Source: Rhodospirillales bacterium
GTDB lineage: Bacteria > Pseudomonadota > Alphaproteobacteria > Rhodospirillales > JASLQF01
Direction of reading: 5' to 3'
DNA length: 64,000 nucleotides
NCBI GenBank assembly: GCA_030744625.1
Contig: JASLQF010000044.1
Location: 66,506 to 130,505, forward strand
The notes below the pieces were generated by a model. The model had not been told where the DNA came from. It did not search any database and saw only the letters and a program-made list of their open reading frames with translations. Both the position numbers and the translations under genes were made by a program. This document shows positions 13,761-17,101 of this stretch, piece by piece. Within the stretch, counting starts at the first letter, position 1. Each line of letters opens with the position of its first letter.

Positions 13761-14360
13761 ATGGACAAGGCCATCGATTACTACTACTCGCTCATCTCGC
13801 CGTGGACGTACATGGGAGGGCCTCGTCTCGAGGAGATCGCGGCGCGACACGGCGCCACCATTGCCTACAAGCCGATAAAGCTGTCCGAGATATTTCCGGC
13901 CAGCGGAGGACTGCCGCTGGCCAAGCGCGCCCCCGCCCGCCAAGCGTACAGGTTGGCCGAGTTGGAGCGTTGGCGCACCTTCCTGGACATGCCCTTGAAC
14001 ATGCACCCCAAACACTTTCCGACTCCCGAATGGCCGGCCGCCGGCATGGTCATCGCGGCCCACCACCCGGGGCCCGAGCGCGGACGCTTGACCAACGCCC
14101 TCCTGCGGGCCGTATGGGTGGAAGAGCGCGACATCTCGGACAGGGAAACGTTGCAAGTCATCGCCGGGGAAAACAGCATGGACGGTAACGCCCTGCTCGC
14201 CCATGCCGAAGGGGGCGCCGCGAACGAGGAATATCAAGCCAACACGGCCGAGGCAATGGCGCTTGGGGTCTTCGGCGCGCCGACCTACGTCTACGGCGGC
14301 GAACTGTTCTGGGGGCAGGATCGTCTGGACTTCCTGGACAGGGCGCTGGCGCGCCCATAG
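13761..14360 (+). CDS. 2-hydroxychromene-2-carboxylate isomerase / DsbA-like thioredoxin-fold protein
   Basis: 199 aa. IDYYYSLISPWTYMG and VFGAPTYVYGGELFWGQDRLDFL are typical of the HCCA isomerase family. Confidence 0.8.
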   Translation: MDKAIDYYYSLISPWTYMGGPRLEEIAARHGATIAYKPIKLSEIFPASGGLPLAKRAPARQAYRLAELERWRTFLDMPLNMHPKHFPTPEWPAAGMVIAAHHPGPERGRLTNALLRAVWVEERDISDRETLQVIAGENSMDGNALLAHAEGGAANEEYQANTAEAMALGVFGAPTYVYGGELFWGQDRLDFLDRALARP

Positions 14361-14362
14361 CG

Positions 14363-14387
14363 GCCGCCGCTTCGGATTTTCGGCGGC
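14363..14387. terminator. Hairpin between convergent genes
   Basis: GCCGCCG-cttcggatttt-CGGCGGC lies between the stop at 14360 (+) and the stop at 14389 (-). Confidence 0.4.
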
Positions 14388-14388
14388 G

Positions 14389-14604
14389 TCACTCCTCCTG
14401 GACCTCCGAAACGCCCTGGATGACGAAACCCTTGGAAGACGGGTACTTGATCTCGATTTTATCACGCGCCGCCTGCTCGTCCCCGGCATTGACCTCGACA
14501 TAGTGGACATCCGCCCAGTCGTCGGTGAACTCCCGGTGCCGTTCGTCCTCTTTCACGCATCGCCGCACTTCCTCGTTGTGCAGCGCCACCTCGAACTTAG
14601 CCAT
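14389..14604 (-). CDS. Small hypothetical protein, paralog of 11838..12074
   Basis: 71 aa with an ATG start and an AGGGGTGG-like SD upstream. It shares the core FE.A..N.EVR..VKE...H..F.D.WADVH...V.A.DE..AR......YP...GFVI with the other copy. Confidence 0.6.
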   Translation of the reverse strand: MAKFEVALHNEEVRRCVKEDERHREFTDDWADVHYVEVNAGDEQAARDKIEIKYPSSKGFVIQGVSEVQEE

Positions 14605-14855
14605 TGGATTCGACCACCCCTATCTTCCGGTTCGACGACCGATTATGACCCATTTGTCCGCGCCAAGCCACCACATCGGTAACAACCGGGAAAATGAAAA
14701 ATACCCCAACATTGGAACGTGTTAACAGAATTTAAGTACTCTTGCAAAATAACCATGGTGTCCGGCTGCCGCCTTCGGCGTCTTTTGGCGCAAAAGGCCG
14801 GGTCATCGGGCCGACAATTGGCGCTGACATTTTATACGGATGCGGGTGAAGAATC

Positions 14856-15125
14856 ATGAGCGAACTGGCAAGAGCACCTTCTGTCTCCGACGAAGCCAAG
14901 AGAAGGCTTGAGCAGGCCAAGAGAAATCTTGAGCAGATCAAGAAGGAGGAAGAATCCCGCAAGCGCAGGATTGCCATGCGCAAAGACCGCGAGGAGCTCA
15001 TGGGGCGCCGGCGTCAACGGGGCTCGGCTTGGTGGATCAAGCCCCTGCTTACGTTCTCCATAATTTGCGCGGCGCTGATATGGATCGCCTGGAAATGGCC
15101 CACCTTGAAAGAAATTCTCACCTAG
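14856..15125 (+). CDS. Hypothetical tail-anchored protein (charged coiled-coil N-terminus, C-terminal TM helix)
   Basis: 89 aa: EAKRRLEQAKRNLEQIKKEEESRKRR... followed by WWIKPLLTFSIICAALIWIAWKW. I recognised no homology. Confidence 0.4.
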   Translation: MSELARAPSVSDEAKRRLEQAKRNLEQIKKEEESRKRRIAMRKDREELMGRRRQRGSAWWIKPLLTFSIICAALIWIAWKWPTLKEILT

Positions 15126-15156
15126 AAGATCGGATGGGTCTTTACCGTTACTGCGA

Positions 15157-15786
15157 TTACTCCGATCGGACGATTCGCCCCGACACGTTGCGCAGGCGTC
15201 CGGCCCGCGTCATGGAAACGATGACACAGCGGTCCCCGGCCTGCGTAACGATGGGAGCGTAGTTGCTCAGCCCCACCGAGAAGCCCTCGATGAGGTCAAG
15301 CTTGGTGAGTTTCCTGCCGATAATCCCGTACGCGACCTGACTATTTGCCAAGTCCGCCGCGGTCGGCCGGATCACCAGGTTTCCGGCATCCCTCAAGACG
15401 AACTCGAACCCCTCGCACACCACGAAGTTGTCTTGCTGCGGTGTACTGTTGGGCCATCCTCCCATCAGCTTCACGGCAGGCAGGAGCTCCTTGCACCGGG
15501 CCCTCATTTCCCTATCGCTGGCATCGCTGGAGAGACCCAAGATCTCGGCCACCGGTGGGTCGCTTTCCAGCCCTTCGTAGTAGCGGCGGAACAAGTCGCA
15601 GTGAAAAGTCTGCCAGGTCGCCGATTCCTCTTCCAGCTCGGCCTGTTTTACCTTTGCCTTGGCAATCTGATCGGGGGTCAATTCCACGACCTCCGGCTCG
15701 GGCTCGGGAGTCTTGTCCATGAGGGTCGGGACGACGATGGCGAGCCACGCCCCCACGGCGACCAGAAGCCCCGCTATGCAGCCCAA
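15157..15786 (-). CDS. Hypothetical single-pass membrane protein; the annotated start is a TTG and may be extended upstream by a frameshift
   Basis: 209 aa. The N-terminal TM segment is GCIAGLLVAVGAWLAIVVPTLM. The reading frame stays open upstream (KGNKKTKTKKEKKKTSSFLVKVVL) but contains no ATG or GTG. Confidence 0.55.
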   Translation of the reverse strand: MGCIAGLLVAVGAWLAIVVPTLMDKTPEPEPEVVELTPDQIAKAKVKQAELEEESATWQTFHCDLFRRYYEGLESDPPVAEILGLSSDASDREMRARCKELLPAVKLMGGWPNSTPQQDNFVVCEGFEFVLRDAGNLVIRPTAADLANSQVAYGIIGRKLTKLDLIEGFSVGLSNYAPIVTQAGDRCVIVSMTRAGRLRNVSGRIVRSE

Positions 15787-15914
15787 AACAACCTTAACAA
15801 GGAAACTCGATGTTTTCTTTTTTTCTTTTTTTGTTTTGGTTTTTTTGTTTCCTTTTCAGGCTTTGCACCGCCCTTGATCTTTTTCTTCTCTTTTTTGTCT
15901 GGTTTCTTGGCCAT
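15774..15914 (-). CDS. Lys-rich 46-codon ORF overlapping the start of the 209-aa gene (possible true N-terminus via -1 frameshift)
   Basis: My own translation is MAKKPDKKEKKKIKGGAKPEKETKKPKQKKKKRKHRVSLLRLFWAA*. It has an ATG start with AAGGGG 11 nt upstream. It is too short to appear in the ORF track. Confidence 0.3.
   Translation of the reverse strand: MAKKPDKKEKKKIKGGAKPEKETKKPKQKKKKRKHRVSLLRLFWAA
15825..15831 (-). other. A_AAA_AAG heptamer in the zero frame of the Lys-rich ORF (candidate -1 slippery site)
   Basis: In the ATG frame the codons read CA[A AAA AAG]. A -1 slip enters the frame of the 209-aa ORF. Confidence 0.3.
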
Positions 15915-16002
15915 TGTTCTTGGCACCCCTTACGTGCTTCCAGGTGAGCCGCTACACTCCCACCGTCCCCCGTTCGCGCCAGTATTAACGGTCATAAACC
16001 CC

Positions 16003-16596
16003 TCAACCGCCACCGAAGAGGCTTTTGAAGAAGGCTTTGATACGGTCCCGGATCATCGCCCACAAGAGGGACCCGGCATCGATCTGCGCGGCCGCCTCGC
16101 CCATCTTGGCCGGAGCGTCCGCATCCGCCGCTTCACCGCCCTGGGCGGCGTCCAGCTTGGCCTGGAGATTGGCGGCGAATTGCTTGGTCAGACGACCCGC
16201 CAGGTCGTTCACCAGACCGGGGCGGTTGAACTGGGCGAGCGCGCCCGCCAGGGTGAACTCGACAACGATATCGACGCGCGTCGACGCGCCCCCATTTTCC
16301 TCGACCAGTTTGTAACGCACCTCGCCCTTGGCACGTGAGCCGCTGCGGTTGTCCCGGCCGCCGCCCCGGATGACGCCTGCGAGCGCCTGGTCGTCGCGCT
16401 CGATGTCGCCCTCGCCCGCGAAATTGGCGCCGATCGGCCCCAACTTGACGCTGATGTTTCCTTCGACGTGCCGGCCGTCGGAGGGCGCCGTCAGCGAGGC
16501 CCCCGGCATGCACGTCACCACCTCGTCGATGTTCCCGAAAAAATTCCAAACCTGCCGGGGCGGGTGGTTTACATCGAAGCCCTGAGTCAATTCCAT
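16003..16596 (-). CDS. CoxG-family SRPBCC protein
   Basis: Starting from the internal ATG at 16596: MELTQGFDVNHPPRQVWNFFGNIDEVVTCMPGA..., a typical CoxG N-terminus. It lies downstream of the CoxS/M/L-type genes. The upstream part of the 246-aa track ORF overlaps the 2Fe-2S gene. Confidence 0.8.
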   Translation of the reverse strand: MELTQGFDVNHPPRQVWNFFGNIDEVVTCMPGASLTAPSDGRHVEGNISVKLGPIGANFAGEGDIERDDQALAGVIRGGGRDNRSGSRAKGEVRYKLVEENGGASTRVDIVVEFTLAGALAQFNRPGLVNDLAGRLTKQFAANLQAKLDAAQGGEAADADAPAKMGEAAAQIDAGSLLWAMIRDRIKAFFKSLFGGG

Positions 16597-16618
16597 TTCG
16601 TTATTCCATCGTTGGCGG

Positions 16619-17101
16619 CTAGACGCTCGCCACCTCCTTGCGCTCGGCGAGCACGCGCCTGATAGCCCGCACGATGCCGACGTAGCCCGTACATCGGCAG
16701 AGGTTTCCGCTGAGTTCCAGACGGATGCGGGACTCGTCGGCATCGGGTAGCCGGGCGATGATGTCGCGGGCCATGATCAGCATGCCCGGCGTGCAGTAGC
16801 CGCACTGCAGGCCATGCTCCTCGGTGAAGGCCTGTCTGAGGTGCGCCATCAGCTCATCGTCGTCGAAGTCCTCGATGGTACGCACGTCCGTGCCGTCGCA
16901 GGCCACCGCGAAGTTTATGCACGAACGCACGGGCTCTCCGTCCATGATCACCGTGCACGCGCCGCAAACCCCGTGCTCGCAACCCAGGTGCGTGCCGGTG
17001 AGCCTTTGGTCGTCGCGCAGAAAATCGGCTAGGTGCGTGCGCGGCTCGACCTCCGCCGTCACGGAGCGTCCGTTGATGGTTAGATTGACCGTCTTTTTCA
17101 T
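16619..17101 (-). CDS. (2Fe-2S)-binding small subunit of xanthine-dehydrogenase-family molybdoenzyme
   Basis: 160 aa with GCEHGVCGACTV and CGYCTPG cluster motifs. It overlaps the upstream gene by 4 nt. Confidence 0.9.
   Translation of the reverse strand: MKKTVNLTINGRSVTAEVEPRTHLADFLRDDQRLTGTHLGCEHGVCGACTVIMDGEPVRSCINFAVACDGTDVRTIEDFDDDELMAHLRQAFTEEHGLQCGYCTPGMLIMARDIIARLPDADESRIRLELSGNLCRCTGYVGIVRAIRRVLAERKEVASV

Follow-up and report, generated by a model that had tools for sequence, protein, structure and literature searches.

An orphan membrane-protein gene split by a fixed homopolymer frameshift lesion in a marine Rhodospirillales population

The DNA considered here is a window of 64 kb (64,000 nucleotides (nt), the whole stretch analysed) from a Rhodospirillales bacterium (GenBank assembly GCA_030744625.1, contig JASLQF010000044.1). 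On its minus strand, a short Lys-rich open reading frame (ORF) of 46 codons, opened by an ATG at 15914, overlaps an ORF of 209 amino acids (aa) that starts with TTG at 15786, encodes a membrane protein and lies in the -1 frame relative to the ATG frame. A first-pass annotation made from the letters had proposed that the two are joined by a dnaX-type programmed -1 frameshift at an A_AAA_AAG heptamer. Comparison with relatives shows instead that they are the halves of one ancestral gene, and that the lesion separating them, a net loss of one nucleotide in a run of A, is real and fixed in a near-clonal, widely distributed marine Rhodospirillales population. An evolved dnaX-style frameshift rejoining the two parts is not supported, and the lesion, which lies in an orphan membrane-protein gene, is a homopolymer frameshift of an ordinary kind. 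The explanation towards which we lean, with little more than even confidence, is that the split gene now yields a likely head-less 209-aa product from the TTG, with slippage as a by-product.

One ancestral frame and a fixed lesion

A protein search with the hypothetical fused protein against 5.8 billion protein clusters returned 14 relatives. Among these, P0002 (257 aa), P0003 (255 aa) and P0004 (261 aa) share 73-80% identity with the fused protein and carry the Lys-rich head, the transmembrane (TM) helix and the domain in a single frame (e.g. MAKKPDKK...KPKQKKK...FVVKVVLGC); the DNA of the intact relatives' loci (L005, L004 and L006) is uninterrupted across head and domain. Because the relatives encode all parts in one frame, the two ORFs of the window represent a single ancestral gene, and the earlier assignment of both to one gene with its break in the A-runs is borne out. 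The homology of the window to the relatives' heads follows the ATG frame as far as ..KPKQKK and continues in the -1 frame from KKKTSSF.., which locates the lesion in either the second or the third of three A7 runs (Table 1), two sites that the alignment cannot distinguish; compared with the intact L004, one nucleotide net and one further codon are missing. The loss of one A from an A8 run, leaving A7, would be the simplest event. The remnant ORF retains the ancestral Lys-rich cytoplasmic head to about codon 30, and past the lesion it runs out of frame (KKRKHRVSLLRLFWAA) to its stop.

Exact-sequence look-ups, covering Tara Oceans, JGI, Logan and ENA samples and several different assemblers, recovered the remnant peptide of 46 aa, without any change, from at least 15 contigs of independent samples and the identical 209-aa protein from at least 19. 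Over the 161 nt of the head, the window, 17 complete loci and the partial locus L023 do not differ, with L024, which misses one further A, as the sole variant (18 of the 19 lineage assemblies being identical). Over window positions 14300-17100, these 19 assemblies (L001 and L007-L024) show at least 99.9% identity, with five variant sites over 2.8 kb. The near-identical cluster member at NCBI, MDP6573803.1, is a hypothetical protein from a Rhodospirillales metagenome-assembled genome, and the repaired 252-aa allele was found neither among the 5.8 billion protein clusters nor among the members of cluster 1. Single-frame orthologs, a break within a homopolymer and its reproduction in independent data were thus all observed, as expected for a homopolymer lesion.

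Homopolymers are the classic site of sequencing and assembly errors, and two assemblers do disagree at one A-run of this lineage. An indel error confined to the window would, however, require the same systematic error at A8 on every platform, which is implausible for short reads. An identical head in 17 complete and one partial independent loci leads us to reject an assembly error, and an indel present in the window only was ruled out by the recurrence of the same lesion across studies, sequencing centres and assemblers; practically no credence is left for this explanation. The first-pass annotation had taken single-frame orthologs as a sign of an assembly indel, a deduction that fails against the shared head. 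Single-frame orthologs need not mean assembly error, since exact look-ups across independent assemblies revealed a fixed allele.

The lineage is strikingly clonal while being spread over different oceans, studies and assemblers. The disagreement between assemblers concerns L024 (402-529) and L014, which are the MEGAHIT and Logan assemblies of the same run (ERR868353) and whose copies of an A5 run in the head differ in length by one A. At A-runs no single assembly is fully dependable, and reliability comes from the agreement of many.

Frameshift signals and the chance level of the heptamer

Part of the dnaX-type arrangement is indeed in place. The A_AAA_AAG heptamer lies in the X_XXY_YYZ phase and a -1 slip on it gives a 252-aa product (...KPKQKK followed by EKKKTSSFLVKVVLGC...), both as first proposed, and the productive overlap, with the -1 frame open from 15855, spans 80 nt and holds two in-phase heptamers and three A7 runs. 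In dnaX-type stimulation, an internal Shine-Dalgarno (SD) sequence lies 10-14 nt upstream of the heptamer; in Escherichia coli dnaX itself it stands 10 nt upstream, and a stem-loop follows about 6 nt downstream. Both stimulators are missing here. The 80 nt after the heptamer have a folding energy of -18.1 kcal/mol, where shuffled sequences average -20.2 (z = +0.77); 158 of 200 shuffles fold at least as well as the native sequence, and the first 15 nt after the heptamer remain unpaired. No internal SD was found at 10-14 nt from the heptamer, the closest candidate, AAGGA (15853-15849), lying about 18 nt before 15831 and only 2 nt before 15846. Conservation of the two-frame layout is lacking as well: it is limited to the window lineage, L004, L005, L006 and L040-L042 being single-frame, and in the remaining split lineages the break sits elsewhere or is a stop codon.

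The A-richness of the head is beyond chance. The three A7 runs (15846-40, 15832-26 and 15824-18) make up three of the five A/T runs of at least 7 in the whole window; the GC content of third codon positions is 0.41 in the head against 0.80 in the remaining gene (window GC, 64.6%); and AAA accounts for 10 of the 19 Lys codons of the head, whereas across 30 long window ORFs its share is 21% (p = 0.002). The heptamer itself is a by-product of coding KQKK and stands at chance level, as 36-63% of trials with synonymously resampled Lys codons placed an in-phase A_AAA_AAG within the productive zone. In-phase A_AAA_AAA and A_AAA_AAG are also found in the intact L004, L005 and L006 (A_AAA_AAG at the homologous CAA AAA AAG in L004 and L005), where a slip on the heptamers would terminate the protein 6-11 codons later. 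Since the same in-phase heptamers sit in intact relatives, the heptamer is older than the lesion.

The headline claim of a dnaX-type programmed frameshift is given up on these grounds: the orthologs are single-frame, which the proposal itself had named as evidence against it, the heptamer is ancestral and at chance, stimulators are absent, and a sister lineage lost the head via a TAG codon. In comparison with E. coli dnaX, the locus shares the identical heptamer in the correct phase but neither the SD nor the stem-loop; its arrangement is unconserved, its heptamer occurs in unsplit orthologs too, and a shift would extend the product, whereas the dnaX shift truncates it. The OrfA-OrfB pairs of the IS3/IS1 type (A6G/A7) likewise consist of two ORFs that overlap at an A-rich slippery motif, OrfB lying in the -1 frame. 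The present locus, by contrast, is no mobile element and has no downstream pseudoknot or hairpin, and its fused form corresponds to the ancestral gene, not to a regulated minor product. The case can serve as a control for genome scans, in which an in-phase heptamer between overlapping ORFs is no evidence of recoding if the upstream ORF is Lys-rich.

The first-pass proposal, in its 'programmed' or 'corrective' form, amounts to a compensated frameshift, in which the 252-aa protein would still be the functional product, restored in a useful fraction by a ribosomal -1 slip or by addition of one A by RNA polymerase. We regard this as rather unlikely. The overlap offers the two heptamers and three A7 runs described above, the -1 product matches the architecture of the orthologs, the population in which the lesion became fixed is a successful one, and the head ORF is otherwise undamaged. 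The required +1 A in the mRNA also corresponds to the favoured direction of transcriptional slippage in A/T runs, a single-base insertion, whose frequency climbs exponentially with run length (PMC5574713). Precedents for the rescue of interrupted genes include 'corrective' frameshifting (PMC5009743) and the A11 run of tssM, where rescue by slippage reaches about 20% (PMC4256274), while C_AAA_AAA in pDEST17 promoted 25-60% of -1 shifting in over-expressed E. coli constructs (PMC1851650). Efficient transcriptional slippage is nonetheless documented for runs of at least 9 (PMC5009743), and the longest A/T runs here are the three A7, which fall short of this benchmark for productive transcriptional slippage of the Thermus dnaX, tssM and mxiE type. 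The layout is unconserved, three intact lineages carry heptamers on which a slip aborts the protein, neither a downstream structure nor an SD at stimulatory distance is present, and a sister lineage cut the head by a stop codon and kept the downstream ORF. In E. coli, the shiftiness of A_AAA_AAG rests on the single tRNA-Lys of that species (PMC5009743). No tRNA genes occur in the 64-kb window, but AAG represents 79% of the Lys codons in the 30 long window ORFs, a usage that suggests the presence of a tRNA-Lys(CUU) and would speak against efficient slippage.

Known homopolymer-split genes, such as the poly(A) genes of endosymbionts, tssM1 of Citrobacter rodentium (PMC4256274) and the cases of 'corrective' frameshifting (PMC5009743), provide the nearest parallel, with the same fixed 1-nt indel in an A-run of a single ORF, remedied by mRNA with one extra A or by a -1 shift of the ribosome. 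Their runs are of 9-11, however, compared with A7 here, and in the present gene there is no sign that both forms are needed, a plausible independent downstream start exists and other lineages drop the same segment by a nonsense codon. If slippage proved substantial, the locus would be an example of a gene rescued through A7 runs, with stimulators absent, in a free-living bacterium of high GC content.

Loss of the head and the likely product

Independent loss of the head was observed in other lineages. The sister species (P0003 cluster) is polymorphic for the head: L004, L040 (14x), L041 (an NCBI assembly) and L042 (Logan) have it intact, and an AAG to TAG change cuts it on L033-L036, at coverage of up to 19x. 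On the latter contigs, the next in-frame start after the TAG is the TTG also seen in the window, and the remaining 207 aa are undamaged. The head alleles of this species differ by two single-nucleotide polymorphisms in the 175 nt compared, and their TM+domain part is nearly identical (dS, the synonymous divergence, of 0.007). In a third lineage, seen in two samples (L002 2886-3005, and L038), an A was lost at codon 4 (GCCGAAAACCGG, A4, versus A5 in the relative L003), and the remnant ORF ends CAATGAGT, its stop forming an ATGA overlap with the ATG of a 217-aa ORF. Since frameshifting cannot rescue a nonsense codon, the head is dispensable while the TM+domain part is retained.

The ratio of nonsynonymous to synonymous substitution rates (dN/dS) of the TM+domain part is 0.22-0.38 in pairs involving the window and 0.27-0.35 between intact lineages; not being raised in the window pairs, it gives no sign of relaxation. 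Some family members have very short heads, for instance P0036 (MLKT..) and P0039 (MRHV..). Three independent lesions confined to the head suggest that the Lys-rich tail is dispensable in this orphan family, but the clustering is only suggestive, because A-runs and Lys codons are prone to mutation. L003 (2.96x coverage) and L037 were left out of the count of independent lesions as possibly error-rich.

Several minor features of these loci were also recorded. In the intact allele of the sister species (head at about 1355-1500 of the locus), ACG replaces the canonical ATG and an ATG abutting an SD-like AAGGG is used; in the TAG allele, the canonical ATG is restored and the AAG to TAG change lies 11 codons on. 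L039 encodes the same protein as L002, yet it has A6 where L002 has A7 in another run. L037 (1100-1560, P0007 lineage) has a Lys-rich head that looks intact, followed by an insertion of 1 nt within the TM helix and, ahead of the domain, by an unrelated stretch of about 100 nt, and its neighbouring DsbA-like gene is truncated too, as in a decaying locus or an error-rich long-read contig. P0011 had been taken as a natural head-less form and was dropped, since in L026-L028 an ATG further upstream in the same frame adds a short charged head.

In the explanation that we favour, the ancestral gene encoded a small bitopic membrane protein, whose Lys-rich head, disordered and cytoplasmic, preceded a single TM helix and an alpha/beta domain of about 185 aa. 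One base was lost from an A-run, which would most simply have happened by replication slippage from A8 to A7, and the loss became fixed. Ribosomes would continue to start at the ATG at 15914 behind its ancestral SD, read the 46-codon remnant and stop at its TAG, and the TTG at 15786, preceded by AAGG, would be used either directly or by termination-reinitiation (translational coupling). The product would be a head-less, signal-anchored 209-aa protein with the predicted N-terminus fMGCIAGLL. Unprogrammed slippage, of the ribosome at A_AAA_AAG/A_AAA_AAA or of RNA polymerase at the A7 runs, may add a small full-length fraction, recognizable by the fused-frame peptides ..KPKQKKEKKKTSSF.. or ..KQKKKKKKTSSF..; this slippage product is a by-product and not an evolved recoding signal. 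Among the alternatives listed by the first-pass annotation, the third, a 46-aa remnant plus a TTG-initiated protein, fits the evidence best.

The geometry agrees with a coupled overlap, as the stop of the remnant ORF falls close to the downstream start (10 nt past the TTG, with an overlap of 13 nt) and AAGG precedes the TTG with a 5-nt spacer. Termination-reinitiation coupling in operons relies on similar arrangements, including the classic ATGA of the L002 lineage, but the one in the window arose by accident from the lesion and not from operon design. The scan for promoters and terminators found nothing, so that an internal promoter in the A/T-rich head is unsupported.

Several points weigh against this explanation. 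The use of the TTG and its coupling to the remnant ORF are both read from the sequence, and a head-less TM anchor would lack a positively charged N-terminal flank, so that insertion or topology could suffer. C_AAA_AAA and A_AAA_AAG can shift -1 substantially in E. coli with no designed stimulators (the 25-60% measured in over-expressed constructs, PMC1851650), and at such rates slippage here could exceed a trace. The three independent lesions all fall in the head, where A-runs and Lys codons mutate readily. A dN/dS of about 0.3 denotes only moderate constraint and reflects mostly pre-lesion history, leaving room for a recent pseudogene, and the near-clonality of the split lineage (five sites per 2.8 kb in 19 assemblies) puts post-lesion selection beyond test.

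An early pseudogene, with neither half functional and the downstream ORF open through recency alone, is considered unlikely. Besides this moderate constraint, it draws on the orphan status of the family, on the recurrence of lesions in relatives (L002/L038, L033-36 and L003), on the degraded look of L037 and on the weakness of the TTG as a putative start. It is opposed by the confinement of all well-supported lesions to the head, which is about 18% of the gene, the remainder of 207-217 codons being untouched in three lineages; by the dN/dS of the window pairs, which is not elevated; and by the presence in each split lineage of a start and an SD-like motif exactly at the TM helix (TTG with AAGG, or ATG with the ATGA overlap).

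Two further alternatives invoke the lability of the A-runs. A phase-variable contingency locus, in which tract length would toggle the long form ON and OFF within populations, is very improbable. Homopolymer tracts do lie in the 5' coding region, and A-run lengths vary among relatives (A6 in L039 versus A7 in L002; L003; L024), but at the level of consensus assemblies, which would mask minority variants, 18 of 19 share an identical OFF tract with no ON allele in the protein collection. The lone variant, L024, is contradicted by L014 from the same run, and A7 is short for an A/T switch tract. With slightly less doubt, although still as a speculative idea, the A-rich Lys-coding head might act as a recurrent evolutionary switch between long and short isoforms, operated by mutation (an indel in the window lineage, a nonsense codon in the sister species and a separate indel in the third lineage), with partial read-through of the fixed split by slippage on the two heptamers and three A7 runs in the window lineage. 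One locus would in that case deliver head-less and full-length protein at a set ratio, like tssM1 or dnaX, although with short runs and no classical stimulators.

Coordinates, protein family and neighbourhood

The coordinates of the gene region are collected in Table 1. Those given earlier for the ATG with its upstream AAGGGG and 46-codon Lys-rich frame, and for the TTG of the 209-aa ORF with AAGG 5 nt before it, check out; the downstream frame is open for 23 codons 5' of the TTG, not for 26 as had been counted. An in-frame GTG is present at 15926, ahead of the ATG.

Table 1. Features of the split gene, all verified on the minus strand of the 64-kb window.
Feature	Position	Strand	Remarks
SD-like AAGGGG	15930-15925	-	10 nt between AAGGGG and the ancestral ATG (15914-15912); AAGGG/AAAGGG kept in all close relatives
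Remnant head ORF, 46 codons + TAG	15774..15914	-	ATG 15914-15912, stop TAG 15776-15774; translation MAKKPDKKEKKKIKGGAKPEKETKKPKQKKKKRKHRVSLLRLFWAA
TGA bounding the downstream frame on its 5' side	15856..15858	-	Productive shift possible only between this TGA and 15774
First A7 run, second in-phase heptamer (A_AAA_AAA)	15840..15846	-	Inside the productive overlap; present too in intact L004, L005 and L006
Lesion site, second and third A7 runs	15818..15832	-	Runs 15832-15826 and 15824-15818; from DNA alignment to relatives
A_AAA_AAG heptamer, in phase	15825..15831	-	CAA AAA AAG, coding QKK; homologous copy in intact L004 and L005
TM helix in the downstream frame	15730..15804	-	FLVKVVLGCIAGLLVAVGAWLAIVV; first 6 residues lost with the TTG start
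SD-like AAGG	15792..15795	-	5 nt before TTG 15786; AAGG kept in window, L002, L003, L004 and L005, AAAG in L006
209-aa ORF, TTG start	15157..15786	-	Encodes most of the TM helix, then the domain (about 185 aa, four conserved Cys)

The family is tiny, with 21 representatives among 1.84 billion. In its alignment the motifs MGGWP and DN.VVC are invariant, and Cys is conserved at four positions (HC, RC, VC and DRC), two of them invariant and two nearly so, a pattern compatible with a disulfide-bonded domain outside the cytoplasm. The AlphaFold2 model of the fused protein (pLDDT, the predicted local distance difference test, of 75) presents a disordered head (1-35) and a TM helix (37-66), followed by helices and a beta-rich domain. 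When the fused protein was scanned against Pfam and NCBIfam, all hits were at noise level (Form_Nir_trans and CrgA, E of about 0.1; PknB_PASTA, 17 bits where the cut-off is 450), and a Foldseek search of the PDB gave no match at E <= 0.001, the best being Dcp1-like chains (E = 0.04, TM-score 0.12). Scans of species-representative genomes and of metagenome contigs yielded one and six distant loci, respectively, all single-frame, with different neighbours and with no clue to function. An Rfam scan of 15000-16300 produced only a sub-threshold anti-hemB match at 16124-16185 on the plus strand (21 bits against a gathering threshold of 49.5, E = 0.027), which lies inside the coxG-like gene on the opposite strand and is probably due to chance.

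Within the close clade, a coxL/M/S/G-like cluster lies before the gene and a DsbA-like gene after it, two genes away. An 89-aa ORF (window 14856-15125, plus strand), convergent with the gene and keeping this synteny in most related loci, combines a highly charged Arg/Lys/Glu-rich N-terminal part with a C-terminal hydrophobic helix, has a tail-anchored appearance and gives no NCBIfam match. Between it and the DsbA-like gene, a 71-aa acidic ORF (14389-14604, minus strand), conserved in nearly every close locus, matches no family. Directly downstream of the gene, the sister species has transposase genes at the place held in the window lineage by the 71-aa and DsbA-like genes. They are of the IS1595 or the DDE_Tnp_1/DDE_Tnp_1_4 type, lie at about 2475-3640 in L032/L040 and about 2626-3624 in L033-L036, and represent insertions that differ by locus.

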